Assembly (NCBI GenBank): GCA_016745075.1
Contig: JADGDD010000008.1
Coordinates: 10,678 to 74,677 of the forward strand
Direction: 5' to 3'
DNA: 64,000 bases
From: Planctomycetota bacterium
Lineage (GTDB): Bacteria; Planctomycetota; UBA11346
Position 1 is the stretch's first letter, and each line of letters opens with the position of its first letter. Positions 4,462 through 64,000 of this stretch are shown piece by piece. The translations under genes were made by a program, and so were the position numbers. The notes beneath the pieces are model-generated. The model saw nothing but the letters and a program-made list of their open reading frames with translations. It had not been told where the DNA came from and ran no database searches.

Positions 4462-4508
4462 CACGTCTTCACTTAGTATCAGCTGATTCTAAGAATTTCT
4501 AGAAGCGA

Positions 4509-4551
4509 ATTCTATGAAACAGGCTCACTGTGTAAGCCTGTTTCATAGAAT
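4509..4551. terminator. Bidirectional hairpin between convergent rubrerythrin and glycyl-radical-enzyme genes
   Basis: Perfect 16-bp inverted repeat attctatgaaacaggc / gcctgtttcatagaat with an 11-nt loop, lying between the two stop codons; T-rich flank on the + side. Confidence 0.5.
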
Positions 4552-4558
4552 ATAGATT

Positions 4559-6913: not shown

Positions 6914-6916
6914 AAT

Positions 6917-8697: not shown

Positions 8698-8826
8698 CAA
8701 ATCTCCTTTTCTTCTCTCATCATTATATGAGCCGATAAAAGGGAAATCCTGTCATATTGTGATGAAAAACGACCCTCTTGTGATGTTTGCTTGCCATTTT
8801 AACCTTCCGCACTATCTTTTCGTGAT

Positions 8827-27527: not shown

Positions 27528-30500
27528 CTACTGCACACACAATACCGATCCGTTTTGCAAAGCGACGAAAAGACGATCTCCACAGGCACTTAAACCATCC
27601 ACTACAGGCATTGCTGGCAAGGGCTGACTCCACTGCTCTGCTCCGCTCGTACTATTAAAAGCTGTTAATACAAATTGTGGGTCGTCATTGCCTCCTACTT
27701 GATGGGCACTCACAACCGTACTGCGACAAAGCAACAATGCCATGCTATTGTGTCCCTTCACTTCCCATACACGTAGCGCATCTTCATCTTTTTCCTGTTT
27801 ATCAAAATAATACCCAGACACCGCTTTTTTAGCCGATTGTTTACCACGGTAACGTGCCACGAATTGCTCTGTATCCCAACAAATAAGACGGTGGTTGGTA
27901 TTTTGTGTGCCACCAGACCCCATACGGATGAAAAAACGTTCATTCCAAACAGGAGGAATACGAGAAATTTCTGGAATACGAAATTCTTTACTGATCCCCG
28001 CTTCATCGGTCATAAACACATGTAACCCATTATTAACAACCGCATGTGTTGTTTCCATATGTAACATCCGTCCACCATGAATAATAATACCGTCGGCAAT
28101 ACGCCCAACAAAAGAACCGCCCGTTCTATAAGATCTCAGACGCTTATCCCATTGTGTTTTTTTGATACGACCATCGGCAAGCGCAACATGGAGAGGCTCA
28201 CTTCCTGCACCGCTAGCAAACACTGCATATTCACCATCACGACAAGCACCACCTTGGTTATGAGCTGCTTCTGGTAAACGTACCGCCCAGTTATGCTGAC
28301 CGGTTTGAATATCCAAACTCACTGCATAAACCCCATCGAATGCAAGCATGCCGCAACTTGTTACAACTGAATTTTCCGTGACAATCAGCGGCCCCATTAT
28401 TGGCCAGGTATCAATAAGTTGACCGTAATAAGGTATCCGTCGTTCTTGTGGTGTAAGCTGTGTCCGCCAAACAATCACACCTGTTTCTAAGCAACGCGCA
28501 CTGACAAAACCATCACTTGATCCAGCAATAACTAAACCTTGTGTTATATGCGGTGCCACAAAATAAGGCGAGCGTTCTTGTTTCTGCCAGACTACCGAGC
28601 CATCATCTGGCTGCACACGTCTTATGCTGCCATCTGTACCGCAAATAAAGACCGCTGTTGCTGTTGGTGTAACAAATAACCGAACATCGTTTGCTTCTGC
28701 TTGATAGACCCACTGCTGTTTTCCTTCAGCACAGATACTATCGTAAAATCCATTGCGATCTGTATGTCCACGCACAGCCGCAGGTGCAGGTGCACTCTGA
28801 TTATTTTTTGCAGATCCACCTGCACGCGTTACCGGAACATATGTTTCTGGAACCGTACTCGGAAATGCTCCACGTGCCGTCCACGCGCTCATTTCTTGTG
28901 AACATGAACAATCCATCGGTACACGCACCAACAAACCGCCAGCTGGTAACTCTCCATCCCAGCAATTCGAGCGTGACCATCGACTAAATAACGTTTCTCC
29001 AGTAACCACATTATATTGTTTACTAGCGCCATTCAGCATCCAATCACCAACCGCTGTGATACGTGAACAACCTCGCCCACCAAACTTTACTTTCTCTTGA
29101 ATAAGTGTTCCGTCTGCTGCATTGATAAGTACATTTTCGCCACGTTCTTTCTTCGGATGAGCAATCTTTGTGAGCAATCCATTTTTTGTCGCAAGAATAT
29201 GTATACTAAACTGACTCTTCTTCGGTTTTTCATAACTCCATATTTCTGCCCCAGTCTCTGGGTGAAAAGCTATAATATGACGACGTGCAGGAATTTCTAA
29301 AACATAGGCATCATCCATAAGCAGTGAGGCAGGTGTTGTCATCATCTTTTCACCAATGTGCACTTCATCAATGCGTTCAACAACAGCTGTATCCCTATTA
29401 CGCCAGCGCTCTGCCCCGGTGTTCGCATCAAGAGAGACAATCGATCCACCAACAGTATAATAACACATAATATTATTACGTAGTGCGCAGGTACGTGCAT
29501 CAATTGGCTTCTCTTCTTGTTTTTCCCACAATACGTTTCCATCTCGTACAGCTATAATCCGAAAACCAAAAACATGTTCTATCATACCCGTGACACGGTT
29601 TTCCCAACTAGGGCATTGAGCCAAAGTACCTTTATGCTCACCCGCATAGCGAACTGTTTTCACTGGTTCATCTGCTGGTCCTGCTAAAAGATACATGGTA
29701 TCATCTACGACCACCATCCATTTCAGGCTTTCACTTTCTTTACCATAGGTCCACGTTTGCAGCGTTTTTCCTGTTTCTGGTTCTATATCCTCAACTACAC
29801 CATCATGCATATAATAAAAATGATCAGGCTGGGCCACATACGCACTACGATGAACCTGCGTTCCTTTTGGAAGATCTCTCTGCCATAAAACAGTACCGTT
29901 ATACAAACTGCGAGCAGTTAATTTATAGAGATAGTTCCATTCACGTTTATGATCTGCACCCCAGCCAGTTGCTGTAAATATTCTACCGCCAGATATGGTA
30001 CTGGTAATGCCGGCTGGCTGATGGGCTGGGCCGCTAATCCACTGAAACGCACCTTTCAAACTCACCCGTTGATCTTCTGAAACATTATTATTATCTGGGC
30101 CGTGCTGCCAATGACTCCAATCATCTGCACCTTCTAAGGCCGGCTTACGAATAAGCGTATGAGTAGCTCCCTTAATAGCGACGACACGAGACCACGTTTT
30201 ATATTCAGGTGGTACAGTTGCCTGACCCGCCACCACCAGCGCCCCAAAGGGAGCAACCACCTGCATGGCCGCTGTCCATGGCACTGAAGCAGGGTCTGCG
30301 CAATAGACTATATCAATTAAATTTTCACCATAGGGCAACGAGCTGCCCTCAAACAATTCCAATAGGATTCCATCTGTATTTTGTAATTGCGTGACAAGAC
30401 TTTTTTCAGTCGCTGAGGAGCAGACAACAAGTCCACGTTGTTTGCCAACCGTTTGCAATAAAGCATCTGCCTCTACTGCTTCCACAGCATTCCAACACAG

Positions 30501-30551
30501 AAAAAGACAACAGACACTGAGCAGATACGACATACACGTAAAGGTTCTCAT
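27528..30551 (-). CDS. Secreted PQQ-like beta-propeller repeat protein, ~1007 aa (paralog of 9722-12826)
   Basis: Signal peptide; shared blocks with the paralog (ADDWSHWQHGPD vs TGNWSHAYGGPE; CWDGELPAGGLLVRVPMDCSCS vs CWINLIPAGGLLLMPEASAGCSCS); multiple propeller blades. Confidence 0.65.
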   Translation of the reverse strand: MRTFTCMSYLLSVCCLFLCWNAVEAVEADALLQTVGKQRGLVVCSSATEKSLVTQLQNTDGILLELFEGSSLPYGENLIDIVYCADPASVPWTAAMQVVAPFGALVVAGQATVPPEYKTWSRVVAIKGATHTLIRKPALEGADDWSHWQHGPDNNNVSEDQRVSLKGAFQWISGPAHQPAGITSTISGGRIFTATGWGADHKREWNYLYKLTARSLYNGTVLWQRDLPKGTQVHRSAYVAQPDHFYYMHDGVVEDIEPETGKTLQTWTYGKESESLKWMVVVDDTMYLLAGPADEPVKTVRYAGEHKGTLAQCPSWENRVTGMIEHVFGFRIIAVRDGNVLWEKQEEKPIDARTCALRNNIMCYYTVGGSIVSLDANTGAERWRNRDTAVVERIDEVHIGEKMMTTPASLLMDDAYVLEIPARRHIIAFHPETGAEIWSYEKPKKSQFSIHILATKNGLLTKIAHPKKERGENVLINAADGTLIQEKVKFGGRGCSRITAVGDWMLNGASKQYNVVTGETLFSRWSRSNCWDGELPAGGLLVRVPMDCSCSQEMSAWTARGAFPSTVPETYVPVTRAGGSAKNNQSAPAPAAVRGHTDRNGFYDSICAEGKQQWVYQAEANDVRLFVTPTATAVFICGTDGSIRRVQPDDGSVVWQKQERSPYFVAPHITQGLVIAGSSDGFVSARCLETGVIVWRTQLTPQERRIPYYGQLIDTWPIMGPLIVTENSVVTSCGMLAFDGVYAVSLDIQTGQHNWAVRLPEAAHNQGGACRDGEYAVFASGAGSEPLHVALADGRIKKTQWDKRLRSYRTGGSFVGRIADGIIIHGGRMLHMETTHAVVNNGLHVFMTDEAGISKEFRIPEISRIPPVWNERFFIRMGSGGTQNTNHRLICWDTEQFVARYRGKQSAKKAVSGYYFDKQEKDEDALRVWEVKGHNSMALLLCRSTVVSAHQVGGNDDPQFVLTAFNSTSGAEQWSQPLPAMPVVDGLSACGDRLFVALQNGSVLCVQ

Positions 30552-48960: not shown

Positions 48961-49539
48961 ATGGCGGTTCATAAAGAATGGTATGATCGTGGACATCTTC
49001 CACATTATGATACGGGAAACTGTTATCAATCTTTGACGTATCGTTTGGGAGATAGCCTCCCGCAAGCTGTTCTACAACACATGAAAAATAACGTGCTTTA
49101 TGAACCAGAACAATACCGACAAAAATTGCTACGTAAACAAATTGAACACTACCTTGATGCGGGGTATGGCTCCTGCCTTCTTGGAGAACCAGCGGCAGCA
49201 CAGGCCGTTATTGATACGTGGAAATACAATGATGGACATGCCTATCGCTTAATTGCTGGCTGTGTTATGCCAAATCATGTGCATGTTCTTATTCAAGAAC
49301 TCAGAGGACATCCGCTTGGTTCGATTATACAAACGTGGAAAAGCTACAGTGCCAGAATTATCAACAAAATATTTGCACGTTCTGGCCAACTGTGGATGCA
49401 AAGTTATTGGGATAGATATATACGCGATGATAAACATTTCTGGCGTACCGTTCATTATATCAGAGATAATCCCGTTCAAGCAGGGCTGGTAAAACAGCCG
49501 CAAGACTGGGCTTTTTCATTGTACCCGCAGGATGAATAG
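48961..49539 (+). CDS. REP-associated tyrosine transposase (RAYT; IS200/IS605-like Y1 HUH transposase)
   Basis: HUH motif PNHVHVLIQ and C-terminal catalytic block SYWDRYIRDDKHFWRTVHYIRDNPVQAGLV; flanked on both sides by REP arrays. Confidence 0.85.
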   Translation: MAVHKEWYDRGHLPHYDTGNCYQSLTYRLGDSLPQAVLQHMKNNVLYEPEQYRQKLLRKQIEHYLDAGYGSCLLGEPAAAQAVIDTWKYNDGHAYRLIAGCVMPNHVHVLIQELRGHPLGSIIQTWKSYSARIINKIFARSGQLWMQSYWDRYIRDDKHFWRTVHYIRDNPVQAGLVKQPQDWAFSLYPQDE

Positions 49540-49942: not shown

Positions 49943-52900
49943 CTACAGTGACTTGAGGTATTCTTTTTGTGCTTCGTAGTCGGCGTTGGTTACACCTGCG
50001 CGGCTTTGCAGCATACGCCATGCTTTACGGCGTTCGATACAGAAGAGAACCATTTGACGGGTGATTAAATGGTACACTGGTGTGCCGTCTGCTTTGTAGT
50101 CTATCGCATAGACACCTTTATTGGGAATGTATGCGCGATGTGTTTTATCCAAGAAGCGGCGGTTAACCACATCGTCTTGGGTAATGTTTTTCATCAACTC
50201 GTTCAGCTCAAGGAGGCCATCCACATTGCCATCTTTGATGATTTTGTGGTGATTACGGAAGCGTGCTTCTGTGAAAGCCCAATGCGCGGTGGTGTAGTTA
50301 TATTTTTCTTTAGTGCCTGGGATCTTTTTCGTCATCCAGTCATTCTTACCTTGTGCATTACCTTTAAGGCTGAGTGCTTCGCCGTAGGTTTCACCAAGAC
50401 CAGAGTTAAAGACAAATTCTGGCATACAACGACTATCACGGGCAAGCATGGCTTGGGCTTGTGATGCGTCATCAGCGACACCGTGTTCTGGTTGGCAAGT
50501 GGTGTAGGCTTGGACATAACACGTACCACGGTAGCAAAGACCATCGATAACTGCTTTGTAGAAGTTCGCGCTGTTTGCCATGCTGACCTGTGCAACAAAT
50601 GGTGAACCGTGACCATTCATGAAGATTTCTGAAACAGATTTCTTCTCGGTCAGTTTACCTTCTGTGGCTGGACCAATTTGGTTCATGTCAAATCCACCAG
50701 TCATAACAGAACTATCCGAGTTTTGACCACCAGTGTTTGAGTAAACCTGTGTATCCAACATCAAGATGTTTACGTTTGGACGGTTTTGCAGGACAACTTT
50801 AGACATGTTTTGGAAACCAATGTCACCCATGCCGCCATCACCACCAACTGCCCAGATTTTTGGCAATTCGTTAATTTCAAGATCAGTCATGTACATATCA
50901 GAGAAGTGCGTGTACGTGAAGTAATCCTCTGCGGTGTATCCTTCAGCAAAACTAGCAAGTAAGCTGTCAGCAAGGCGTTCTGGAATAACCGAACGACTAC
51001 CGTGGTTTTGAATAAAGCTTTCCGCTACCAACCAACCAATGGTTACACCGTCTTGGAACAAACTGTTCATCCATGGGTATGGATGCGGGTTATTTGGTGG
51101 GGTAGAACCGTACACACTATTACAACCAGTGTGGGCAGTCATCGCCATAGCGCACATACCGTTTGCCAAGGTACCTTCGATAGTTTGTAGGTCACGATGG
51201 TTAAAGGCATCTTGTGTCAGCACTGCTACAACAGCATCAACTAAATCAGCATCAGAACCATTCCAGTCAGCAAGACGAACGTCGGTGTCTGCTGTATCTG
51301 AACCGCCAAGACCACAAAGCACATGCAGAACAGTACGTTTATATGCTTCGTATCCGGCTTCATCAGCAGCCTTGAATGATTCAAGCGATTTCAATCCAGT
51401 TTCTTTTAATTGTTTAGCTTTGGCAGTTAAACGATCTGCTTTGGCGTGGAACATTGGGCGCATCAAGGTTTCTGTTACGGTAGCGATACCGCGAAGAACA
51501 CTCTTCTCACCACAACCAGCACAGCCGCCGTCACCTGCAAGGAAGCTGGTATATTTGCTACGCAGCATCAAGTGGTAGCGCAGAGCCGCAGCGCGTGTTT
51601 CTGCTGGATTTTCTGCATCAAACATACCAAGGAATTTTTGTGGAGTATCAGCAAGTAGCTTATGGAAGCCTTCTGAGGTTTCCATGTCTGCGTGAATTTC
51701 TTCGGTTTCTGTTGCCATATAGATAGCATCATCACCACAAACATCAACACACTCGCCGCAACCTTTACACTTATCATTAACAGAAATGCTAAAGATACCG
51801 CCAGCGCCTTCTTCTTTCTTCTCAAGCAAGCTAAAGATACTCATGGTACGTTGGTAAGCCCATTTTGTTTTACCAAGAATGGTTTCTACAGCAGCCAATG
51901 CTTCTTTACTTACTGCACTGTCACCTTCTGCACTTTTGGTTAATGCGTTCATTGCAATTTCTGCAAAGCTGGTGCCAGCTTTTTCTGCTACAGATGCTTT
52001 CATAGCATCGCGGGCAAGCGCAGAGGCCGGGATAACATGTTTCAACAGTACTTCACGAGCAGCGTCATCACCAACGTAGTTTTGAACCGCAGTACGGATA
52101 ACCGTGGTAATTTCTTGAGCGCTATTCGGCAAGGCCGTATCTGGGCAAATGCTGATACAGTCCATACATTGGGTACAGTTTTCTGAGACCCAGATTGGCA
52201 CTTCACGACGAGCAACATATTTACTGACGTTTTCTGTGTTACCGGATGCAACATTACCAACAGCAGCGAGTGCGCTGGCTGGCTGATTGTAGCCGTAACC
52301 TGCGCGATATTCGCTATCGAAGTAGCTTGATTTTTGAATGTTTGGACGTGGTTGTTCTACAATTGATGTATCGCAACCAGATGTGGTTGGGCAGATACTA
52401 CCAGAAACAAAGCTTGAACGGTCTGCTGCATCAAGCTTGCCATAGGCAACTTCTTGTAAGGTGCTGAATCCGTCTTCCATTACTTTCATGTTAGAATCAA
52501 CAACAGCATCACCAAAACGGCCAAATTTCTTCACATACTGTGCGCGCACTGTGCTAGCAAAGTTTTCTTCGGTGATTTTGTAGTCGCCAAGGAAGCTAGA
52601 CACTTTAAAGAATGCACCAAGGAACGCGTTACCTTGCATACGAGTTTGCAATTCTGGGCGATCTGTTGCTTCTTTAGCAATGTTAAAGCCAGCAAGTGTG
52701 TAAACTTTAATATTTTTGTCGACAATTTCTTGACGATATTGTGGTGGAATACGTTGCCATGCAACATCAGGCGACTCGCTGCTTTCCCATACAAATGCAC
52801 CGCCTTCACGTAGGCCGTCAAGTGGGTTTGAGTGAAGGAAGATTTTTGGGTCACAGCAGAGAACCACGTTTACGTGACGAAGGTCACAGTTCATACGGAT

Positions 52901-54514
52901 ACGTTCTGGGGCAGCTACCATAAAGTAGTTGGTTGGCGCGCCTTTTTTCTCTGAACCGTATTTTGGATTCGCACTAATATTAACAATTTCTTTCAAGGTG
53001 CCGTCATCTTCGCGCAAGTCGTCACGCTCAGCAACCATGTTCGAGAAAGTACCAAGAATTTCACCAAGGTTTTTACCAGTGGTGATCATACCCCAGCCAC
53101 CGATAGAGTGGAGGCGAACCGCGATAGAGCCTTCTGGCAAGAAGGAGCGAACATCGTCAGAGATAACCGCGTATGGGTGATCAATACCGACATAGAAGAA
53201 TGCTTCACCGTCAGTTGCTTTTTTGCCATCTTGGCGAGCAATTTGACCAGTTGCATATTCGTACGCGCCAAGAATACCTTCTGGACGGAAGTCACGAGAA
53301 CCGAGACCGTACACACCAGAGTAGATTTCTGGTTTTTCAGTTGCTGGGTCAATAGCAGACAAACCTGCATGACGGTTTGATTTTTTATTTTCGCATGCTT
53401 TAGAGATAGCAACGCGAATGTCACGAGTAAGTGGGTTATCACCAGACAGTGATTCGTCTGTACGTTCCAGAACGATAACGCGCTTCTTACCTTTAACAGC
53501 TTTAACAATAGCGTCTTCTGGGAATGGGCGAATAACGTTGACGTGGATAACGCCAGCTTTTTCACCTTTGTTACGCAAGTGGTCAACACCAGCTTCAATA
53601 TTTTCTGCTGCACTACCAAGGGCAATAAAGACAGTTTCTGCATCATCGCAACGGTATTGGCTAATAAGACCATACTCACGACCTGTTAATTCAGCAAATT
53701 CTTCATAGGCTTGTTCGAAAAAGCCAAGAACACCTTCAGAGAAGTTGTTACGACGAGCGGCAATACCGTTCATGTAATGTTCTTGGTTTTGCACTGGGCC
53801 AAGCAACTGAGGTGCTTTTAAGCTGAGAACTTCAGGCACACGACGACGGGTTTCACCGAAGAGTTCTTTTTGTGCTGGAGTTGGACATTCAATTTGATCA
53901 TTTGGATGGCCAAGGAATTCACGAACAAGACCTGGCTCTGGACGACGGAAGGTACGCTCAAGATGGGTGGTTAAGAAGCCATCTTGGATATTCATACCTG
54001 GAGTTAAAGTTGCTTCGGTAACTTTGCGCAAAATTAACGCTTGGTCACTTGCTTGTTGAGCGTCTTTTGCAAAACACATCAACCAACCAGTGTCGAGTGT
54101 CGCGTAAATATCATCATGTGCACAATGTACATTCAGCGCATGTTTGGTCAGCGCGCGAGCACCAACTTGTAAGACCATAGTGCTGAGTTTGCCTGGCGCG
54201 TGATAATATTGCTCTACACCGTAGACAATACCTTGGCCAGAAGTGAAGTTGACCGTACGTTTACCGGTAACGGATACCGCAATGGCACCACCCATAGCAG
54301 CGTGTTCGCCTTCAGCTTCAATGGCTATAAAAGAATCGCCAAAGGCATTTAACTGACCTTTGGCGTATTGGAGTTGAAAGTTTTCACCTTGTTCTGTAGA
54401 TGGAGTGATTGGGTAAAACACACCAGCCTCGGCCACAAGTGGCTCTGTGTAAAAGGCGACTAATTGGTTACCATTTGTCGTAACACGTGTTCCTGGATAC
54501 TTGGGTGAAGTCAT
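49943..54514 (-). CDS. nifJ: Pyruvate:ferredoxin (flavodoxin) oxidoreductase, single-polypeptide type (NifJ/Por-like), unusually long (1523 aa)
   Basis: N-terminal pyrimidine-binding domain, two 4Fe-4S ferredoxin motifs (CTQCMDCISICP, CKGCGECVDVCG), C-terminal ThDP-binding GGDGGMGDIG...; start at 54514. Confidence 0.9.
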   Translation of the reverse strand: MTSPKYPGTRVTTNGNQLVAFYTEPLVAEAGVFYPITPSTEQGENFQLQYAKGQLNAFGDSFIAIEAEGEHAAMGGAIAVSVTGKRTVNFTSGQGIVYGVEQYYHAPGKLSTMVLQVGARALTKHALNVHCAHDDIYATLDTGWLMCFAKDAQQASDQALILRKVTEATLTPGMNIQDGFLTTHLERTFRRPEPGLVREFLGHPNDQIECPTPAQKELFGETRRRVPEVLSLKAPQLLGPVQNQEHYMNGIAARRNNFSEGVLGFFEQAYEEFAELTGREYGLISQYRCDDAETVFIALGSAAENIEAGVDHLRNKGEKAGVIHVNVIRPFPEDAIVKAVKGKKRVIVLERTDESLSGDNPLTRDIRVAISKACENKKSNRHAGLSAIDPATEKPEIYSGVYGLGSRDFRPEGILGAYEYATGQIARQDGKKATDGEAFFYVGIDHPYAVISDDVRSFLPEGSIAVRLHSIGGWGMITTGKNLGEILGTFSNMVAERDDLREDDGTLKEIVNISANPKYGSEKKGAPTNYFMVAAPERIRMNCDLRHVNVVLCCDPKIFLHSNPLDGLREGGAFVWESSESPDVAWQRIPPQYRQEIVDKNIKVYTLAGFNIAKEATDRPELQTRMQGNAFLGAFFKVSSFLGDYKITEENFASTVRAQYVKKFGRFGDAVVDSNMKVMEDGFSTLQEVAYGKLDAADRSSFVSGSICPTTSGCDTSIVEQPRPNIQKSSYFDSEYRAGYGYNQPASALAAVGNVASGNTENVSKYVARREVPIWVSENCTQCMDCISICPDTALPNSAQEITTVIRTAVQNYVGDDAAREVLLKHVIPASALARDAMKASVAEKAGTSFAEIAMNALTKSAEGDSAVSKEALAAVETILGKTKWAYQRTMSIFSLLEKKEEGAGGIFSISVNDKCKGCGECVDVCGDDAIYMATETEEIHADMETSEGFHKLLADTPQKFLGMFDAENPAETRAAALRYHLMLRSKYTSFLAGDGGCAGCGEKSVLRGIATVTETLMRPMFHAKADRLTAKAKQLKETGLKSLESFKAADEAGYEAYKRTVLHVLCGLGGSDTADTDVRLADWNGSDADLVDAVVAVLTQDAFNHRDLQTIEGTLANGMCAMAMTAHTGCNSVYGSTPPNNPHPYPWMNSLFQDGVTIGWLVAESFIQNHGSRSVIPERLADSLLASFAEGYTAEDYFTYTHFSDMYMTDLEINELPKIWAVGGDGGMGDIGFQNMSKVVLQNRPNVNILMLDTQVYSNTGGQNSDSSVMTGGFDMNQIGPATEGKLTEKKSVSEIFMNGHGSPFVAQVSMANSANFYKAVIDGLCYRGTCYVQAYTTCQPEHGVADDASQAQAMLARDSRCMPEFVFNSGLGETYGEALSLKGNAQGKNDWMTKKIPGTKEKYNYTTAHWAFTEARFRNHHKIIKDGNVDGLLELNELMKNITQDDVVNRRFLDKTHRAYIPNKGVYAIDYKADGTPVYHLITRQMVLFCIERRKAWRMLQSRAGVTNADYEAQKEYLKSL

Positions 54515-54882
54515 GTGAACCTTTCAAAAAAACGCTGAAAACCAGCGGAGTGACATAAATCTGGCGCTACACTCTTCGTGCGACACGCCTTTGTGACTTG
54601 ATTACAACCTTCGTGGCTTAGCCACGGCTGGACCTTCGGGCCCAAAATTGAACTAAGGAAGGTACGGTAGTTCACCTCACACGCTAGTAACAATTTCTTC
54701 ATTTTGTCTTAATTTGGGACCCTTCAGATGCTGAAATAGACTGACCGCCATCCCTTGCATACGGTGCTCTTCTGACCCTACTTCCACTTGACTGACCAGT
54801 TCAGCTACAAGGATGCTTTGCCACCAGAGACAAGGGGTTGCCATGAGCAACCTCATCACCCCCCTAGCGGACGGTATCAACG

Positions 54883-55293
54883 ATGGAATCGTATTCTCTT
54901 ATCGGTATTTTCGCCATTCTTGGCATACTTTATGTTGGTGGCGCTATTCTTGTATCACGCATCCTCGGCCCTAAGGGCGCAACTGGCGAAGCGGCGGGCA
55001 AGAAGTTTCAGCCCTACGAATGCGGTATAGACCCAACCGGATCGGCCCGCATTCAGTTCCGCATTGGTTACTATCTTTTTGCTTTGGTTTTCATGGTTTT
55101 TGATGTGGAAAGCCTTTTCCTTTTTCCCTGTGCAAAAATCTTTAATGCTGTAGCAAGTCCAGACAGTACACTGCCAGAAGCCGCTGCGAACATTGGCCAA
55201 GGCCAAATTTTAATCGAACTCTTAGTTTTTGTCTCAATCCTTGGCCTTGGCCTCATCTTTGCTTGGCGAAAGAAGGTGCTTGAATGGGAATAG
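54883..55293 (+). CDS. nuoA: NADH-quinone oxidoreductase subunit A
   Basis: 136 aa, 3 TM; [11 protein letters not shown]...[10 protein letters not shown] conserved NuoA blocks. Confidence 0.9.
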
Positions 55294-56519
55294 ACCTTCA
55301 GCTCATCCCCAAGGTACTGGACCCCCTTCCTGGTGGAAAAGGCCTCACTAACGCAGTTGACTACATTGTAAACTGGGCTCGCTCCAGTTCTTTATGGCCC
55401 TTGGTCTACGGTACCTCGTGCTGTGCCATTGAGATGATGGCAACCGGTGCTGCCCGCCATGATATTTCTCGTTTTGGCGCAGAGGTCTTCCGAGCCTCTC
55501 CGCGACAAGCCGACCTCATTATTTTAGCAGGTACGCTCACTGAAAAAATGAGCCACCATCTCAAGACGCTCTATGAGCAAATGCCAGAGCCAAAGTACGT
55601 TATAGCAATGGGTGCCTGCACTATTTCTGGCGGCCCATTTTACTACGATAATTACTCCGTGATTAAAGGCGCAGACCGTATTGTACCGGTTGATGTCTTT
55701 ATTCCCGGCTGCCCACCACGACCAGAAGCCCTGTTACACGGCATTCTCGAATTACAAAAACTTATATCTGGTGAAACGATTCGCCAGCCACGCGTTCCGC
55801 GCCCCCTCAACGATGACCCCATGATCGACCGTCATAGTGCTGATGCCGCCGCTTGGAAAGAAGAAGACAAAAAGATTCAGGAAGAACTTGCAGGCAAACG
55901 CGAGCAGTGGGCCGCAGAGAACCCAGACTTCAAAGCCTATAAAGGCGAACGTTTCAAAAACGTCAGCGGCCCCAAAATGGGACACACTCCAGTTGAACGC
56001 AGTTGTACCAGCGTTGCCGACATTTGCGCTGCCGTACATGACAAATTCCCAGACATTCCACTGTACAATAAAGCTGAAATTACAGATGAAGAGCTAGCCG
56101 AGCTTTCACCACAATACATTCCAGATTTTGTTGTTGGTCAAGAACAATACACTGCTTTTATCAGCTTTCTCAAAAACCATGCCGACCTGAATATGGATTT
56201 ACTGTTACAGGTTACAGCCGTAGACTGGAAAGACCATTTTGATGTCTTGGTGCATCTCTACTCCACCACTGGCAAACATAAAATATTTGTTCGCTGTAGC
56301 GTAGACTATAGTAAAGAGAACGATACTCCAGAAATTGACACCATCAGTCATCTTTTCTCAGGTGCAAACTGGCATGAACGTGAAATATTTGATTTATTTG
56401 GCATCACCTTTACCAACCATCCAGATATGCGCCGCATCTTATTACGCGACGATTTTGTTGGCCACCCGCTGCGTAAAGATTTTGAAGATAGCAGCCGTAT
56501 TGTGAAGAGGCCCTACTAA
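55284..56519 (+). CDS. nuoB/nuoC: NADH-quinone oxidoreductase subunits B and C, fused
   Basis: N-terminal NuoB motifs [25 protein letters not shown]; C-terminal NuoC block [26 protein letters not shown]...GHPLRKDF; single 411-aa frame. Confidence 0.9.
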
Positions 56520-57670
56520 TGGATTTAGTGCAGACAGAAATTCCAGAAGGCTTCACCCGTTCTGCTGGTGGCGGTCATACAGAAGAATATTATTTAAATA
56601 TGGGGCCGCAGCACCCATCTACCCACGGTGTGTTACGCTTAATGGTACGCCTTGATGGTGAAACGGTTAAAGAAATTGTTCCACACATTGGCTATATTCA
56701 TCGTTCCATTGAAAAAATGGCCGAGTCCCAAAGCTTAATACAAAACATTCACCTGACCGACCGCTTAGATTATTTATCGTGCCACATGACCAACCTCGGT
56801 CTCTGCTTAGCCATTGAACAAGGTGCAGATGTTGGTGTACCAGAACGCGCTGAATACATTCGTATTATTGTGTGTGAATTACAACGTATCCAAAGCCACT
56901 TGCTCTGGTGGGGTTGTTTTGCGATGGACCTTGGTGCGCTGACTGCTTTCTTATACGGGTTTGATGAACGTGAAAAAATAACAGATCTCTTTGAAGAGCT
57001 CTGCGGCGCGCGCTTAACCATGAATTACTTTCGCCCCGGCGGCTGTGTGTCAGATCTCCCAAATGAGTTCATTCCACGCATTCTCAAGATTTGCGAACAT
57101 ATGAAAACCACCTTGGACGAATACGATAATCTCGTCAGTAAAAATATGATTATCCGTGAGCGCACTCAAGGCGTTGGCATTCTCAGCAAAGAACGCGCAT
57201 TATCCCACGGTTGCACCGGCCCTGTTGCCCGCGCCTCTGGCATTAATTACGATGTGCGCAAAGACGAACCCTATGGCATTTACAATCGTTTTGACTTTGA
57301 TGTACCATTGGGTGCAACCGGTGACTGCTATGACCGCTACACCGTTCGTATTGAAGAAATGCGACAAAGCATACGCATACTGGAGCAGGCTTGTAAAGAC
57401 CTTCCAGATGGCGACTTCCGCAGCAAAGAAAAACCCAATTATAAGATACCAAAAGATGAACACAGCTTTAGCTCTGTAGAAACGGCACGTGGTAATTTTA
57501 GCACCTATGTCGTTAGTGATGGTGGAAAAACACCTTACCGGATTAAATACCGTTCACCAAACTTCTCTCATATTGGCGCGATTAACGACATGGCTTCTGG
57601 CTATAAACTTGCAGACCTTGTAACTGTTCTTGCCACCCTTGACCCTGTGATTCCGGATATCGATAGATAA
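56519..57670 (+). CDS. nuoD: NADH-quinone oxidoreductase subunit D
   Basis: 383 aa; NiFe-hydrogenase-large-subunit-like NuoD blocks; start overlaps the nuoBC stop. Confidence 0.93.
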   Translation: MDLVQTEIPEGFTRSAGGGHTEEYYLNMGPQHPSTHGVLRLMVRLDGETVKEIVPHIGYIHRSIEKMAESQSLIQNIHLTDRLDYLSCHMTNLGLCLAIEQGADVGVPERAEYIRIIVCELQRIQSHLLWWGCFAMDLGALTAFLYGFDEREKITDLFEELCGARLTMNYFRPGGCVSDLPNEFIPRILKICEHMKTTLDEYDNLVSKNMIIRERTQGVGILSKERALSHGCTGPVARASGINYDVRKDEPYGIYNRFDFDVPLGATGDCYDRYTVRIEEMRQSIRILEQACKDLPDGDFRSKEKPNYKIPKDEHSFSSVETARGNFSTYVVSDGGKTPYRIKYRSPNFSHIGAINDMASGYKLADLVTVLATLDPVIPDIDR

Positions 57671-58785
57671 TGGATACTTCAACACACCAACCAGTACAAC
57701 AGTCAGTAGCAGAACGCCTCGATCCACATACGGCAACCACACCACTTGGTGACTGGGTTCGTGAACTCTGTGATGCACCGGACGGCGGCAACCTGCTGTC
57801 CATGACTATTAATGTCATCATTATCATTATAGCAATCTGTGCATTTTCATCCCTTACGGCTATGGTACTCGTGTGGATGGAGCGCAAACTTGCAGGCCGT
57901 TTCCAACGCCGCTTGGGCCCAACCCGCACTGGCCCTTTTGGCTTACTGCAAACAGCTGCGGATGGCTTGAAATTATTCTTAAAAGAAGGTTTCCGTCCAA
58001 ACGCCTCTGACCCCTTCACCTATTATCTTGCACCGCTGCTGCCGCTGACTGGTGCGTTTATGGTGTTAGCCGTTATTCCTTTTGGCCCCAGTATGTGGAT
58101 AGCAGACCCAGAACTTGGCCTCATCTTTATCAGTGCGATTGCGGGACTGGGCGTACTGGCCTTACTTATTGGCAGCTGGGGTTCTAATAATAAATATTCA
58201 CTTATGGGTGGCTTGCGTGCTGGTGCGCAGGCCATTTCTTATGAAGTCTCTCTTATTCTCTGCTTTTTACTCATTGTACTCGCTAGTGGTGAAACAAATT
58301 TGCTGAACATTGTTGAAGGACAGCAAGGCAATTTCTGGAACTGGTGGATCATTAAACTGCCCGGGGCTGGCTTCATTGCATTTATCTTCTTTATTATTAC
58401 CAGTACCGCAGAATTAAACCGAACACCATTTGATACCACAGAAGCAGAATCTGAATTAACAGGTGGCTTTCATACGGAATATTCTGGCATCGCCTTTTCC
58501 ATGTTCTTCTTGGCTGAATACGTGCACATGTTCATCGCAGCAGCCATTGGCGCAACTTTATTCCTTGGTGGCTACAATGCTCCTTTTGAGTTCCTACCAG
58601 ACGGTTGGTGGTGGCTTATGGCAAAATCGTATGCAATTATTTTCCTCTACATCTGGTTCCGTTGGACCTTCCCACGTTTACGTATTGACCAATTGATGGC
58701 GCTTGAATGGAAATTTCTGCTGCCGTTATCACTGATCAATCTAGTTTTTGCAGGAATTCTTATTGCGATGGGATGGATACTCTAA
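57670..58785 (+). CDS. nuoH: NADH-quinone oxidoreductase subunit H
   Basis: WMERKLAGRFQRRLGPTRTGPFGLLQTAADGLKL block; multi-TM; ~45-aa N-terminal extension. Confidence 0.93.
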   Translation: MDTSTHQPVQQSVAERLDPHTATTPLGDWVRELCDAPDGGNLLSMTINVIIIIIAICAFSSLTAMVLVWMERKLAGRFQRRLGPTRTGPFGLLQTAADGLKLFLKEGFRPNASDPFTYYLAPLLPLTGAFMVLAVIPFGPSMWIADPELGLIFISAIAGLGVLALLIGSWGSNNKYSLMGGLRAGAQAISYEVSLILCFLLIVLASGETNLLNIVEGQQGNFWNWWIIKLPGAGFIAFIFFIITSTAELNRTPFDTTEAESELTGGFHTEYSGIAFSMFFLAEYVHMFIAAAIGATLFLGGYNAPFEFLPDGWWWLMAKSYAIIFLYIWFRWTFPRLRIDQLMALEWKFLLPLSLINLVFAGILIAMGWIL

Positions 58786-59352
58786 ATGACCACGCCAGAC
58801 CAACATCAAGACACGCCTCCACAAAACCGTCCACAAAGCCGTCCACAAAACATGGGCGCATTCACTCCTGAAGCACAGGCAGAAGACACGTGCACTAAAC
58901 CGAGTTTTTACGCCTATTTTATTAAGCGCCCTATTGTTGGTGCTTTTTCTTTGCTCACAGGCATGGGCATTACTCTTAAAACCTTGTGCAATGTCACTAG
59001 TACAGTCACGCAAGAGTACCCGGAAAACCGCGACACCCTGACTATGCCACCAGCCTTTCGTGGCCAAGTTATTATGCCACATGACGAAGAGGGCGAGCAT
59101 AAATGCACAGCTTGTACCTTATGCGAAAAAGCTTGCCCCAACGGCACCATTTCTGTGTTGCCGATGAAAAATATCGCTAACAAAAAAGTACTCGGCAAAT
59201 ACATTTACCGTTTTGACCAATGTACGCTCTGTTCGCTCTGTGTTGAAGCCTGCCCTTTTGATGCGATTCGTATGGGAAATGACTTCGAGCACGCCACCGT
59301 TGATAAGGATAGCCTTGTTATGGTCCTGAATGAAAAAGAAGGGCGGCTGTAA
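58786..59352 (+). CDS. nuoI: NADH-quinone oxidoreductase subunit I (2x[4Fe-4S])
   Basis: CTACTLCEKACP and CTLCSLCVEACP ferredoxin motifs. Confidence 0.9.
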   Translation: MTTPDQHQDTPPQNRPQSRPQNMGAFTPEAQAEDTCTKPSFYAYFIKRPIVGAFSLLTGMGITLKTLCNVTSTVTQEYPENRDTLTMPPAFRGQVIMPHDEEGEHKCTACTLCEKACPNGTISVLPMKNIANKKVLGKYIYRFDQCTLCSLCVEACPFDAIRMGNDFEHATVDKDSLVMVLNEKEGRL

Positions 59353-59912
59353 TGGAAGCAACACTGACCACAGACATCCTCTTTTATTTATTTTCTGCGG
59401 CTATTCTTGGCTGTGGCCTTATGGCGGTCACAGTTAAAAACCTGCTGCATTCTGCCATCGCTTTAATGGGCTGCCTCTTTGGAACGGCTGGTTTGTTTCT
59501 GCTTCTGGATCATGAATTTGTCGCCCTAATGCAAATCCTCGTCTACATTGGCGGGGTTGTTATTTTTATTATTTATGCAGTTTTGCTGACCACCCATTTG
59601 GGCACACGTTACCTCCCCGCCTCTACCCTCAAATACATTTCCGGCGTTACCCTAGCCGCTATTGTTCTGGGCTTAGTTCTCCACATAGATCCACAGGCAA
59701 CCCACACAGCTGTCAATCCAGACCGCACAGCCACTACCATAGATGCTATTGGCTACCGTTTACTTGATGGCAGCACCAATGGCTTCCTTATTCCTTTTGA
59801 GGTCATTTCTGTTCTCTTGCTCTCTGCAATGATTGGCGCGGCAACAATTGCCAAACATCAGAAGCCAGGCGCTACTAATGATGAAGACGAAACAGGAGGG
59901 TCAGCATCATGA
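59352..59912 (+). CDS. nuoJ: NADH-quinone oxidoreductase subunit J
   Basis: 186-aa multi-TM protein in the conserved operon position; start overlaps the nuoI stop. Confidence 0.85.
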   Translation: MEATLTTDILFYLFSAAILGCGLMAVTVKNLLHSAIALMGCLFGTAGLFLLLDHEFVALMQILVYIGGVVIFIIYAVLLTTHLGTRYLPASTLKYISGVTLAAIVLGLVLHIDPQATHTAVNPDRTATTIDAIGYRLLDGSTNGFLIPFEVISVLLLSAMIGAATIAKHQKPGATNDEDETGGSAS

Positions 59913-60220
59913 ATCTAACCGCCTGTTTAAGCCTTTCTGCGATACTGTTTTCTTTTGGTATTTTCGGTCTGATGACGCGCCGGAAAATTATTGCCATGTT
60001 GCTCGCTATTGAGCTCATGCTCAATGCTGCACTTATTAACTGCGTTGCTTTTGCCTACTATGCCCCCGCCGGTGCAGACACCGACGTTGGCTCCATTCTC
60101 CCTATTTTCATTGTTGCTATTACCTCTGCGGAAATGGCCGTGGCCCTTGCTGTTATTGTTGCGATGTACCGCAAACGCAAAGTCATAGATATTGAACGAC
60201 TGGAGGATCTCCATGATTGA
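59909..60220 (+). CDS. nuoK: NADH-quinone oxidoreductase subunit K
   Basis: 103 aa, 3 TM, LLAIELMLNAA block. Confidence 0.9.
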   Translation: MNLTACLSLSAILFSFGIFGLMTRRKIIAMLLAIELMLNAALINCVAFAYYAPAGADTDVGSILPIFIVAITSAEMAVALAVIVAMYRKRKVIDIERLEDLHD

Positions 60221-62198
60221 ATCCTCGTGGATGATTCTACTGCTACCGTTTATCAGCTTCATCGGCGGTATCCTTTTCTTACACAAACAACCAAAGCTCG
60301 CTGCAGGTTTTTCTATTCTCTGCAATGGTGCTGCTATGGTTATGGCGCTTATCCTTGCTGTGGGTTTTCTCAGCAGTGATGACACTGGTTATCATGCGCT
60401 AGCACACACCTGGTCTTATGACTGGTTTGCCATTACCGATACCTTAACCGTTAGCATTGGTGCATTGCTCGACCCAATCTCTATTATGATGTTGGTTGTC
60501 ATTACGGTTATTTCAACACTGGTACACACTTATTCTATTGGTTATATGGAAAATGATGCTTCTGCGGGGCGCTTTTTTCCGCTCTTATCGTTTTTTGTAT
60601 TCAGTATGCTTGGTCTCGTGATTGCACCGACCCTTGTACAAATGTTTGTATTTTGGGAACTAGTTGGCGTTTCTTCTTATATGTTAATTGGCTTTTGGTA
60701 TCATAAACCATCAGCTGTCGCTGCCAGTAAAAAAGCATTCATTATTACCCGCTTTGCCGATGCCTTCTTCTTGACTGGCATTATTCTTATGGCCACTCAA
60801 TTTGGTTCAATCGGATTTGATGCAATTAACCAAGGTGCCACTGCATTTAGCAGTATGAATACAGCAAACCCAAGCTTTAGTCTCGAAGGCGGTGCCGTTC
60901 AAGTCTTTACTGCTCTGGCTGCGCAAGAAGGCAGCGCTGGATTCCTTGGGCTCAACCTGCTCTCTTGGGCTACTATTCTGATCTTCATTGGTGGCTGGGG
61001 TAAATCGGCCATGTTCCCACTCCACGTTTGGTTGCCTGATGCGATGGAAGGGCCTACTCCAGTTTCTTCTATCATCCACTCAGCCACTATGGTTGTTGCA
61101 GGAATTTATTTAACAGCCCGACTTTTCCCAGTTTTTGCCGTTGCCGAATACACGCTTTCTGTCGTTGAATTTACCGGAGCCATTACAGCACTCTTTGCTG
61201 CTATTATTGCCTGTACTCAACGCGATATCAAACGCATCCTCGCTTTCTCAACGTTATCTCAACTTGGCTACATGATGTTCTCGCTTGGCGTAGCCGACAT
61301 GGAACACACCGCAGGCTTTACAGCCTCTATGTTCCACGTCTTTACTCACGCTTTCTTTAAATGCCTCTTATTCTTGAGCGCTGGCTTGATTATCCATTCC
61401 GTTCACAGCAATGACATTGCCCTAATGGGTGGTCTGCGCAAAAAACTCAAAGGCACCTACTTTGTTACACTCTTAGCTGTATGTGCCATCGCTGGTGTTC
61501 CTTTTCTGTTTTCCGGCTTCTGGTCCAAAGAAGAGATTATCATGGCTGCATGGTCAAATGGCCATCAATGCAGCGCTATCATTGGCTTGCTGGTTGGCGG
61601 CCTTACGGCTTTTTACATGGGCCGCTACTTCTTCCTTATCTTCCATGGCGAATATCGTGGTGACGCACATCACCTTGAACATGCACATGAAAATAAGTTC
61701 ATGCTTTTTCCTATGGTTCTGCTTGCCATCCCAACAATCATAGCTGGCTACCCAATGCTCACTGGGCACACTTTCTTTAATACGGTTATCCCACAAGCAA
61801 CTCTACCGACTCATCCTGATCATAGCGCTAGTTGGATTATGCCAGTTGCTATTGCAATGGCCATTGGCGGCCTGCTTGTTGCATGGCTGAAATATGGTCG
61901 TCGTGCAGTATCCTTTGATACGCCATCAACAAATATTGTATACCGTTGTATTAGTAATAAATTCTACATCGATGAATGCTATATTTTTGTAACGAAAAAG
62001 ATTATCTTCCGTTGCGTTGCCGCACCGATGAAACTCTGTGATGATTACATCGTTGATGGCATCATTCATTCCAGCGCTGCTATTATGCGTGGTTGCGCTG
62101 CCGTGATTCGTCATTGGCAAAATGGGCAAACCCATGTTTATCTGGGACTTATGATTATTGGCCTTGCCTTACTCGCTTGGTTTGGAGGCGCACTCTAA
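60213..62198 (+). CDS. nuoL: NADH-quinone oxidoreductase subunit L (antiporter-like)
   Basis: WLPDAMEGPTPVSSIIHSATMVVAGIYL block; ATG 60213 with GGAGG 7 nt upstream (listed ORF starts at TTG 60192). Confidence 0.9.
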   Translation: MIESSWMILLLPFISFIGGILFLHKQPKLAAGFSILCNGAAMVMALILAVGFLSSDDTGYHALAHTWSYDWFAITDTLTVSIGALLDPISIMMLVVITVISTLVHTYSIGYMENDASAGRFFPLLSFFVFSMLGLVIAPTLVQMFVFWELVGVSSYMLIGFWYHKPSAVAASKKAFIITRFADAFFLTGIILMATQFGSIGFDAINQGATAFSSMNTANPSFSLEGGAVQVFTALAAQEGSAGFLGLNLLSWATILIFIGGWGKSAMFPLHVWLPDAMEGPTPVSSIIHSATMVVAGIYLTARLFPVFAVAEYTLSVVEFTGAITALFAAIIACTQRDIKRILAFSTLSQLGYMMFSLGVADMEHTAGFTASMFHVFTHAFFKCLLFLSAGLIIHSVHSNDIALMGGLRKKLKGTYFVTLLAVCAIAGVPFLFSGFWSKEEIIMAAWSNGHQCSAIIGLLVGGLTAFYMGRYFFLIFHGEYRGDAHHLEHAHENKFMLFPMVLLAIPTIIAGYPMLTGHTFFNTVIPQATLPTHPDHSASWIMPVAIAMAIGGLLVAWLKYGRRAVSFDTPSTNIVYRCISNKFYIDECYIFVTKKIIFRCVAAPMKLCDDYIVDGIIHSSAAIMRGCAAVIRHWQNGQTHVYLGLMIIGLALLAWFGGAL

Positions 62199-63703
62199 TG
62201 CCTTTCTTGCTTAACTGTACGTGGATATTGCCGACACTCATCGCTTTGAGCCTCATGTTTGTGCCTAAACAAAAGGTTGGTGTCATTCGTGGCATGAGCG
62301 TTGCCGGAGTGCTCGGCATTCTTGCCCTCGTTGTTAGCCTTATCATTGCTTTCCTTGCCGGTGATTATGCCAGCCCTGTGGGCAGTGCTGAAACCACCCT
62401 CGCTTTTTCTTATCGTACACCGTGGTTTGAAGCCATTGGCAACCAGTTCTATACTGGTGTTGATGGGTTCTCTTTGTTAATGATGCTCATGGCCTCTATT
62501 ATTGCCCTCTGTGGTGTGCTGGTCAGCTGGACTATTACCGATCGCTGCAAAGAATTCTTCATCCTGCTCTTTATTTTACTAGCCGGCACCTTTGGCTGCT
62601 TTATTAGCTTTGATTTACTGACCTTTTTCTTGTTTAACGAAATCACGCTTATTCCAACCTACTTGCTGATCGCTATTTTTGGCAGTGGCAAAAAAGAGTT
62701 CGCAGCAATGAAGTTAAACCTCATGCTGTTTGGCGGCTCTGCCCTTATCATCCTCGGCATGGCTGGCACCTACTCTGCCACTGGCAGCTTTGATATGATT
62801 GCCATTGCAAACAACCAATCAGAAACGCTTGGCTCCATAGCCATGTGGGCCTTCCCTGCTTTGTTTATGGGTTTTGGCATTTTAGGTAGTGTCTTCCCAT
62901 TTCATACGTGGTCTCCAGTTGGTCATGCTTCTGCACCAACCGCTATCTCTATGTTCCTTGCTGGTGTGCACATGAAGTTAGGCGGCTACGGCTGTCTTCG
63001 TGCTGCTATTTACCTGATGCCTGAAGGGGCTCAGGAATGGATGCCTCTATTTATGGTACTTGCCACTATCAGCGTTGTTTACGGTGCCTTTATTGCCATT
63101 CGTCAACGCGATCTGAAATACATCAATGCTTATGCTTCTATTTCACACGTTGGCCTTGTTACTTTTGGCTTTGCAACCCTGACCGCTGTTGGCCTAAAAG
63201 GCGGTGTTTTGCAAATGATTAGTCATGGTTTTGTAACCGCTGTTGTTTTTGCGCTGATCGGCTGCATCTATGGCCGCACTCATACCCGCAACATTGATGA
63301 AATGGGTGGCTTAATGAAGAAGATTCCATTCCTGAGCGTCTGTTTTGTTCTCGCTGGCTTTGCGGTGGTTGGCATGCCGGGCACCTCAAGTTTTGTTGCC
63401 GAATTAACCATTTTTATTGCAGGTTTTAGTGGCTCACTAGATGACACCCTGCGCCTTGTTTGTGGCGCACTATGTATTTCATCCATCGTCATCACTGCTG
63501 TCTATGTTTTGCGCACTGTTAACTCTGTCGTTCATGGTCCACTTGTTGATAACGGTCATGAATTTACCGACGCTCGTTTCATTGAAAAGGTTCCGCTTAT
63601 CATCTTGCTGACCTGCATATTTGCCATGGGGCTGTTTCCTGGTTGGATTATTGAACTTGCTGAACAATCACTCACTCCTGTTGTTACCAATCTGGGACGC
63701 TAA
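62198..63703 (+). CDS. nuoM: NADH-quinone oxidoreductase subunit M (antiporter-like)
   Basis: Antiporter-like TM core; ATG 62198 overlaps the nuoL stop (TAATG) with GGAGG upstream; listed ORF start 62093 rejected. Confidence 0.9.
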   Translation: MPFLLNCTWILPTLIALSLMFVPKQKVGVIRGMSVAGVLGILALVVSLIIAFLAGDYASPVGSAETTLAFSYRTPWFEAIGNQFYTGVDGFSLLMMLMASIIALCGVLVSWTITDRCKEFFILLFILLAGTFGCFISFDLLTFFLFNEITLIPTYLLIAIFGSGKKEFAAMKLNLMLFGGSALIILGMAGTYSATGSFDMIAIANNQSETLGSIAMWAFPALFMGFGILGSVFPFHTWSPVGHASAPTAISMFLAGVHMKLGGYGCLRAAIYLMPEGAQEWMPLFMVLATISVVYGAFIAIRQRDLKYINAYASISHVGLVTFGFATLTAVGLKGGVLQMISHGFVTAVVFALIGCIYGRTHTRNIDEMGGLMKKIPFLSVCFVLAGFAVVGMPGTSSFVAELTIFIAGFSGSLDDTLRLVCGALCISSIVITAVYVLRTVNSVVHGPLVDNGHEFTDARFIEKVPLIILLTCIFAMGLFPGWIIELAEQSLTPVVTNLGR

Positions 63704-63706
63704 CTT

Positions 63707-64000
63707 ATGACCCTGCCGACAGCACTTTGGACAGACATCGCTCTTGGAAGCCTTGCTTGTATTATCTTATTAAGCGAATCACTACTTGGCCCACGCCTTC
63801 GCAAGGCCATTGTTTTTCATGGTGCGTGGATTGGTTTAGTGCTGATTGGAATACTCACCGTCTGTACCGCTCCTGAATCTGAACAAGCAATTGGCAACTA
63901 CCTCATCCGCCCGTGGACGATTCCTTTTCGTTTATGTTTTTGTATTGCTGGCGCATTAAGCGTTTTACTCTCCCGCAATTTACTCAGCGGTACCGGCCAT
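63707..64000 (+). CDS. nuoN: NADH-quinone oxidoreductase subunit N, 5' part (continues beyond window)
   Basis: ATG 63707 after nuoM; hydrophobic N-terminus in the conserved operon position; open to the window edge. Confidence 0.75.
   Translation, partial: MTLPTALWTDIALGSLACIILLSESLLGPRLRKAIVFHGAWIGLVLIGILTVCTAPESEQAIGNYLIRPWTIPFRLCFCIAGALSVLLSRNLLSGTGH

Follow-up and report, generated by a model that had tools for sequence, protein, structure and literature searches.

A complex I operon with fused nuoB and nuoC and without nuoEFG, divergent to a long-form PFOR-like gene in a Planctomycetota bacterium

The 11-subunit form of complex I, which lacks the N module of NuoE, F and G, is well known and is routinely read as ferredoxin-dependent (PMC3144371; PMC3534657; 10.1101/765248), and an earlier search for a conserved partner of this enzyme found none (PMC3144371). 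What donates its electrons in non-photosynthetic bacteria is not settled. The question is raised in concrete form by a stretch of 64,000 nucleotides from a Planctomycetota bacterium (GTDB lineage UBA11346; assembly GCA_016745075.1, contig JADGDD010000008.1, forward-strand positions 10,678 to 74,677), called the window below. In it, a nuo operon without nuoEFG, and with nuoB fused to nuoC, lies divergent to a gene for a long protein resembling pyruvate:ferredoxin oxidoreductase (PFOR). We read the window and 10 kb beyond it (about 74 kb in all), mapped its genes from a listing of open reading frames (ORFs) and from Pfam and NCBIfam profile searches, and compared it with other loci, which carry L numbers here. 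The reading towards which we modestly lean is that the complex is a proton-pumping quinone reductase, built from the Q module and the membrane arm, that would be fed by the neighbouring long 2-oxoacid:ferredoxin oxidoreductase (OFOR) through a low-potential carrier.

The nuo operon and its fused NuoBC subunit

The operon consists of ten plus-strand genes encoding eleven subunits. They are nuoA (54883-55293, 136 amino acids (aa); PF00507, 98.5 bits), the nuoBC fusion (55284-56519, 411 aa; PF01058 and PF00329), nuoD (56519-57670, 383 aa; TIGR01962, 464.7 bits against a cutoff of 459), nuoH (57670-58785, 371 aa; NF004741, 335 bits against 305), nuoI (58786-59352, 188 aa; Pfam and NCBIfam matches and two CxxCxxCxxxCP motifs), nuoJ (59352-59912, 186 aa; PF00499), nuoK (59909-60220, 103 aa; NF004320, 87 bits against 57), nuoL (60213-62198, 661 aa; NF005141, 585 bits against 556), nuoM (62198-63703, 501 aa; TIGR01972, 384 bits against 264) and the first 98 codons of nuoN (63707-64000), which runs off the window (gene tables of L001 and L170). 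The start of nuoM and the gene-caller start of nuoL are those of L001; the nuoL ORF reaches further 5', to a TTG at 60192. NuoI has an N-terminal extension of about 55 aa that is rich in Pro and Gln. The DNA of the window was recovered on a 181-kb metagenome scaffold (L001, L170), where nuoN is complete at 481 aa and ends the operon.

A Pfam match was obtained for every one of the 11 subunits, and NuoB, D, H, K, L and M exceeded the curated NCBIfam Nuo cutoffs. Models for F420H2 dehydrogenase (Fpo) all scored under their cutoffs and under the Nuo models, and the operon holds no extra genes, which together rule out that identity. On these profile matches, the cluster is of the 11-subunit, N-module-less respiratory complex I (Nuo/NDH-1) type.

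Adjacent genes abut or overlap by 1-10 nt. Because the nuoD stop codon overlaps the nuoH start, nuoE, F and G cannot fit between the two; on the parent contig, a hybrid histidine kinase gene lies convergent 3' of nuoN, and therefore no E, F or G genes follow nuoN either. The preliminary description of this DNA, made from the ORFs alone, had given the same gene order, the overlapping junctions and the lack of room between D and H, and the profile searches agree with it on all of these. The arrangement is general: nuoH directly follows nuoD in all 12 of the inspected NuoBC-type operons that are intact through this junction. Away from the nuo cluster, Pfam scans of the 39 window ORFs that reach 150 aa, together with a few smaller ORFs, gave no match to a NuoE, F or G domain, and no such genes occur in the 10 kb past the window end. 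The wider search for nuoEFG that had been suggested is thus negative over the roughly 74 kb of the genome that it covers.

The sites that carry electrons to quinone are preserved. None of the N2-cluster cysteines of NuoB (C46, C47, C112 and C143) varies among 21 aligned NuoBC homologues, and NuoD carries the GPQHPSTHG and HIGYIHR motifs and lacks the CxxC motifs of NiFe enzymes. The B domain of NuoBC scores about 196 bits against PSST/Nqo6 and 90-123 bits against Mbh and FHL subunits. Judged by these motifs and scores, the Q-module sites are intact and of the complex I type rather than the hydrogenase type.

In the 411-aa NuoBC protein, Pfam places Oxidored_q6 at aa 46-157 and Complex1_30kDa at aa 283-401, giving a NuoB domain (about aa 22-174), a linker (about 175-243) and a NuoC domain (about 244-411). 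An ORF of this kind could consist of two genes joined by a sequencing or assembly error, an outcome that the preliminary description had named as one that would undo its account. We give this explanation practically no credence, and nothing emerged in its favour. In a large protein collection that draws on NCBI, JGI, ENA and Logan, more than 120 cluster representatives, each 395-443 aa long, combine both Pfam domains in one protein, at 52-67% identity to the query. Across the 21 aligned homologues the linker measures about 70-100 aa, and W191 and the ENPDFK motif at 212-217 (N213, P214, K217) vary little or not at all. When ORFs were traced from stop to stop, NuoBC proved to be a single ORF in 10 independent loci, and the gene tables of 5 further loci list one NuoBC gene each. 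Homologue count, linker conservation and ORF checks rule out an erroneous merger: the NuoB-NuoC fusion is genuine and widespread.

Fusion calls do need such an ORF check, since tblastn alignments crossed the stop codon between separate, in-frame nuoB and nuoC genes (L086 9980-11125 and similar loci) and so mimicked fusions; a metagenome scan with the NuoBC alignment gave mostly ordinary NuoB loci among the matches listed. AlphaFold2 predicts a 30-residue helix in the linker (aa 183-212, pLDDT, a per-residue confidence score, about 76-85). The whole NuoBC model is mediocre (pLDDT 69, with a poor B domain) and was not used for fold searches.

Named carriers of NuoBC are Fibrobacteres/Fibrobacteria, Desulfobulbaceae, Candidatus Electrothrix and Planctomycetota. 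Their taxonomic spread had been proposed for examination. One of the 10 loci of the ORF check, L104 (9983-16537), retains the N module: its NuoBC, of 429 aa and with a longer linker, is encoded in an operon of the classical kind that includes NuoE, F and G. A B-C fusion can thus accompany an N module, and its presence in 14-subunit enzymes makes the fusion alone uninformative on the electron donor. In Candidatus Electrothrix aestuarii (L166, CP159373.1), the operon is split after nuoBC, and unrelated genes (DUF2868, GTPase) follow nuoA-nuoBC.

The E. coli-type NuoCD (NF008728) and NuoBCD (NF009808) fusions likewise join neighbouring Q-module subunits. Unlike them, the window protein joins B and C only, through the conserved helical linker, and leaves nuoD as a separate ORF. 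NuoBC scores 281 bits against NF009808, whose cutoff is 1156, and all NuoCD and NuoBCD family scores are far under their cutoffs. It belongs to neither family, and the earlier statement that the B-C fusion differs from the familiar C-D fusion was correct. A fused B-C chain is present in no solved structure; literature searches found no description of a NuoB-NuoC fusion, all text matches to "nuoBC" being "NuoBCD(I)".

The long-form PFOR-like protein and its recurrence beside nuo operons

On the opposite strand from nuoA, at 49943-54514 (minus strand), lies the gene for a long-form PFOR-like 2-oxoacid:acceptor oxidoreductase of 1523 aa, identified by Pfam, NCBIfam and PDB matches. Its domains run in the order POR_N, PFOR_II, POR (gamma), a split 2x[4Fe-4S] domain and a thiamine pyrophosphate (TPP, beta) domain with a long C-terminus. 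The Pfam matches are PF01855, PF17147 and PF01558, with PorB-type models at aa 1219-1371; PF02775 is recorded in many of its homologues. The PDB matches are the PFORs 6CIN (Moorella) and 1B0P (Desulfovibrio), at 2e-78. The protein contains the cluster motifs CTQCMDCISICP and CKGCGECVDVCG. Twelve cluster cysteines (C780, C783, C786, C790, C916, C919, C922, C926, C998, C1001, C1131 and C1340) and the TPP motif GGDGGMGDIG...YSNTGGQ are invariant in 13 homologues and align to 1B0P and 6CIN. Equally invariant are the Thr of YPITPST and the Arg of VGARAL, which align with PFOR Thr31 and Arg114, the residues that bind the pyruvate carboxylate. The protein can safely be placed in the OFOR superfamily on these features, and we infer pyruvate as its substrate.

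With canonical homodimeric PFOR (Desulfovibrio africanus 1B0P, Moorella thermoacetica 6CIN; NifJ/YdbK, TIGR02176) the window protein shares the domain order, the TPP motif, the 12 cysteines for three [4Fe-4S] clusters and the aligned Thr and Arg. It differs in being about 300-350 aa longer, in its helical inserts, and in belonging to a separate, highly conserved clade. Against TIGR02176 it scores 372.2 bits, in two stretches, where the cutoff is 911.35. The EKR domain (PF10371), which in canonical PFOR sits between the gamma and ferredoxin domains and is present in the canonical PFORs of L163 and L169, has no match in the window protein or in that of L042. It is thus not a canonical PFOR. The name PFOR, as first given to it, needs one correction: the protein is PFOR-like, a long form that falls under every curated PFOR cutoff.

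The extra length has three sources: a helical insert at aa 797-912, which separates the ferredoxin domain's two cluster motifs; a second at aa 1009-1123, after the first two proximal-cluster cysteines; and the longer C-terminus. An AlphaFold2 model of aa 700-1523 is poor overall (pLDDT 51), with confident helices in the inserts, and was not used for fold searches. The inserts flank Fe-S clusters, and protection from O2 is a possible role for them. The long-form clade spans 1505-1590 aa and at least 413 species genomes from at least 10 phyla, with 58-70% identity across phyla. Its carriers include Planctomycetota, Bacteroidota, Verrucomicrobiota, Acidobacteriota, KSB1, Fibrobacteria, Cloacimonadota, Chlorobi and Gemmatimonadaceae, and aerobes are among them, such as the cultured Occallatibacter savannae (Acidobacteriota). 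The clade has no curated family model, and literature searches found no description of it.

Is the neighbourhood of OFOR and nuo genes more than local? L082 and L171, the nearest two relatives, retain the divergent arrangement, with protein identities of 67-70%. We then considered eight other lineages with an intact NuoBC-type operon lacking EFG, reached through NuoBC, and an OFOR adjoins the operon in three of them. In L167, a Fibrobacteria genome, a long PFOR follows nuoN by 200 bp on the same strand, an arrangement shared with L042. In L165, a Planctomycetota metagenome-assembled genome (MAG), a CBS protein and a KorA-like alpha subunit come directly after nuoN. In L169, a JGI contig, a canonical PFOR is divergent, and a CBS protein and KorA- and KorB-like genes lie directly upstream of nuoA. 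A CBS-domain protein with an alpha/beta-type OFOR thus stands beside NuoBC operons on two unrelated contigs (L165 19796-21224; L169 5640-9539); the KorA-like protein has 611 aa, and the KorB-like protein of L169 has 486 aa with a C-terminal CBS domain.

Linkage also extends to EFG-less operons in which nuoB and nuoC are separate, at four loci. A long PFOR follows nuoN in L044 (Lambdaproteobacteria) and is divergent in L041 (an Akkermansiaceae MAG), and a canonical-type PFOR is divergent in L132. In L163 (4577-20120), genes for a 1204-aa canonical PFOR, a protein resembling dihydroorotate dehydrogenase and an Rrf2 regulator precede nuoABCDIHJKLMN on the same strand, in what appears to be one PFOR-nuo operon whose nuo genes run D-I-H. 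No OFOR was seen beside an EFG-containing operon.

Starting from the nuo side, three of eight loci with an OFOR, at an assumed and generous 3% chance per locus, correspond to a rough binomial probability of about 1e-3. Starting from the PFOR side, nuo genes lie within 10 kb in 3 of 80 long-PFOR loci (L041, L042 and L044), which at 0.8% gives about 0.03. Both probabilities are rough, and the samples small and non-random. The evidence for a meaningful pairing is weak from the PFOR side and stronger from the nuo side. That OFORs of three subfamilies occur in three arrangements (divergent, upstream tandem and downstream tandem) argues for selection of the linkage rather than for one inherited gene order. 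As a pattern of gene neighbourhoods, the recurrent linkage supports a functional coupling of the two enzymes.

Electron route, carrier and rival readings

If the two enzymes are coupled, the route would run as follows. The OFOR would convert pyruvate, or a similar small 2-oxoacid, and CoA to acyl-CoA and CO2. Its three [4Fe-4S] clusters would hand the electrons on to a low-potential carrier, a ferredoxin or flavodoxin whose gene lies elsewhere, and the reduced carrier would deliver them to the clusters of NuoI in a complex of NuoA, fused NuoBC, NuoD, H, I, J, K, L, M and N, with no NuoEFG encoded in or near the operon. From NuoI they would reach the N2 cluster of NuoB and then (mena)quinone, with proton pumping. 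The choice of ferredoxin or flavodoxin as the donor is suggested here by the gene linkage to OFORs. A coupled pyruvate-to-quinone route had been put forward in the preliminary description; the recurrent linkage and the pairing kept in L082 and L171 strengthen it, whereas the pyruvate specificity is putative and no carrier gene turned up among the window ORFs scanned.

A candidate carrier does appear in the two relatives. In both, nuoN converges on a gene for an acidic ferredoxin of 84 aa with a single cluster (Fer4_13/Fer4_15; L082 14225-14479 and L171 20620-20874, both on the minus strand), a candidate for the link between OFOR and complex I.

Several observations weigh against coupling. No homologue of the 84-aa ferredoxin is present in the window or in the next 10 kb (L170). 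The earlier suggestion to look for ferredoxin and flavodoxin genes led to nothing in the window, where ORFs of at least 150 aa were scanned with Pfam and shorter ones by the CxxCxxCxxxCP motif; that motif occurs in NuoI and the PFOR-like protein only. The reading also covers only about 74 kb of the genome. In five of the eight NuoBC-type lineages (L083, L084, L164, L168 and L172), no OFOR adjoins a nuo operon of this type, and 77 of the 80 long-PFOR loci have no nuo neighbour; nor was any other conserved neighbour of long PFOR seen across the 80. The spacer from which the PFOR-like gene and nuoA diverge (54515-54882, 368 bp) contains no sigma-70 consensus promoter and only weak repeats, and it neither aligns nor shares a conserved motif with the equivalent spacer of L082; a shared regulatory element was looked for there and not found. 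Finally, only about 400 bp separate the PFOR-like stop codon from an IS200-type transposase gene. Much of this would fit an incidental adjacency, in which a long PFOR-like enzyme that mostly stands alone and a nuo complex with some other donor act independently and were brought together by a lineage-specific accident of gene order. We think this unlikely. It has to accommodate OFORs of three subfamilies beside EFG-less nuo operons at seven or more unrelated loci and in three arrangements, and the rough chance probabilities from both sides oppose it.

Coupling could also operate in the opposite direction. Gene linkage gives no direction of electron flow, and OFOR reactions are reversible; the proton-motive force might push electrons from quinol to ferredoxin, with the OFOR acting as a pyruvate (2-oxoacid) synthase in carbon fixation or anaplerosis. 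The reductive tricarboxylic acid cycle has two carboxylating enzymes that depend on ferredoxin, PFOR and KorAB, and in L169 a PFOR and a KorAB-like enzyme both flank the operon, in keeping with such a reverse run. Weakly opposed to it are markers of a fermentative or heterotrophic anaerobe (a glycyl-radical enzyme, a dehydrogenase of the Ldh/Mdh family and a nearby D-lactate-oxidase-like gene) and, also weakly, the absence of carbon-fixation genes from the stretch inspected. We consider reverse flow quite improbable, and flow towards quinone the likelier direction. It is very improbable, in our view, that a NuoEFG-like module encoded elsewhere attaches to the complex and makes it an ordinary NADH:quinone oxidoreductase with a split gene set. 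There are precedents: one nuoEFG copy serving two nuo sets is known (PMC4453560, table footnote), and in Melioribacter the subunit genes are spread over three loci (PMC3534657); the short span inspected here also leaves room for it. The lack of E, F and G domains in the window and the 10 kb beyond, and the uniform nuoD-nuoH junction of the NuoBC-type operons, speak against it, and in the cases that have been studied distant NuoEF-like genes belong to hydrogenases or formate dehydrogenases (PMC11238625; PMC12142623).

A more radical version of the coupling that we lean towards would dispense with the soluble carrier. In the NuoBC-type clade, OFORs might be dedicated input modules that dock directly on the NuoI/NuoBC surface and functionally replace NuoEFG, forming a 2-oxoacid:quinone oxidoreductase supercomplex. 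We regard this as a long shot, of high interest if true. Its interface might be formed by the ferredoxin domain and helical inserts of the OFOR with the linker helix and ENPDFK motif of NuoBC, a detail that is similarly speculative.

Known systems and gene surroundings

The mechanism first proposed for this locus is the standard published hypothesis and is not new. A close parallel is Desulfitobacterium hafniense, for which a model of PFOR, ferredoxin and complex I was proposed from proteomics and rotenone sensitivity (PMC11238625). In this anaerobe, too, the operon encodes these 11 subunits and lacks nuoEFG, and PFOR heads the list of possible electron sources (PMC11238625). There, B and C are separate, the PFOR is canonical and unlinked, and the evidence comes from co-variation in the proteome and from sensitivity to rotenone. 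The window differs in its B-C fusion and in having a long-form OFOR that is genetically linked, and its system is known from its genes alone.

The NDH-1 of cyanobacteria and chloroplasts, a ferredoxin:plastoquinone oxidoreductase, has the same 11 core subunits without an N module. Ferredoxin is its established donor. Citations to this effect are found in PMC11238625 and PMC3144371. It differs in that its ferredoxin site is made up of extra subunits of oxygenic phototrophs (NdhS, V, O and others). The window encodes none of these subunits, and NCBIfam Ndh models score well under their cutoffs for the window proteins. In Campylobacter and Helicobacter, Weerakoon and Olson reportedly described in 2008 a complex I in which NuoE and NuoF are replaced and which is fed by flavodoxin from POR and OOR. 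The path from a 2-oxoacid oxidoreductase through a low-potential carrier and complex I to quinone would be alike. In those operons nuoG and two substitute genes still separate nuoD from nuoH, whereas in the window nuoD overlaps nuoH.

Three things appear to be new: the clade of fused NuoBC proteins and its conserved linker, the clade of long-form OFORs, and the recurrent linkage of OFORs to EFG-less nuo operons. The first two are under-described protein variants, the long-form PFOR being very conserved and present in many phyla. The linkage offers a concrete, testable donor pathway for 11-subunit complex I, and gene clusters for expression and purification. If the coupling is true, many uncultured anaerobes would gain extra energy from pyruvate oxidation, and the ATP yields predicted in metabolic reconstructions would change.

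The PFOR-like gene and the nuo operon had been described as divergently transcribed from a shared region of 369 bp. The opposite strands are confirmed and the two units may be co-expressed, while the spacer measures 368 bp and the gene on its far side is PFOR-like. Within the spacer, the source annotation has a 55-aa ORF (54677-54844, minus strand), which is probably spurious; it has no Pfam match and no counterpart called in L082 or L171. The IS200-type Y1 transposase gene on the other side of the PFOR-like gene (48961-49539, plus strand) hints at local rearrangement. On the parent contig past nuoN (L170 13003-18957), the hybrid histidine kinase is accompanied by a response regulator and a 978-aa FAD-oxidase/Fe-S protein; the latter resembles D-lactate or glycolate oxidase and could supply pyruvate.

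Elsewhere in the window, the IMP dehydrogenase (GuaB) places the organism in Planctomycetota: its homologues are 68-75% identical, and all those with a name are labelled "Planctomycetota bacterium". A glycyl-radical enzyme and a rubrerythrin point to an anaerobe. Their genes adjoin each other within 3769-8700, where an NHL-repeat protein and a PhyH-family dioxygenase follow, and no activating radical-SAM enzyme is encoded adjacent to the 784-aa glycyl-radical enzyme. PhyH-type oxygenases, of which a second is encoded at 15865-16620, are odd company for these anaerobe markers. The window also encodes two PQQ-like beta-propeller proteins of about 1000 aa, at 9722-12826 (plus strand) and 27528-30551 (minus strand).

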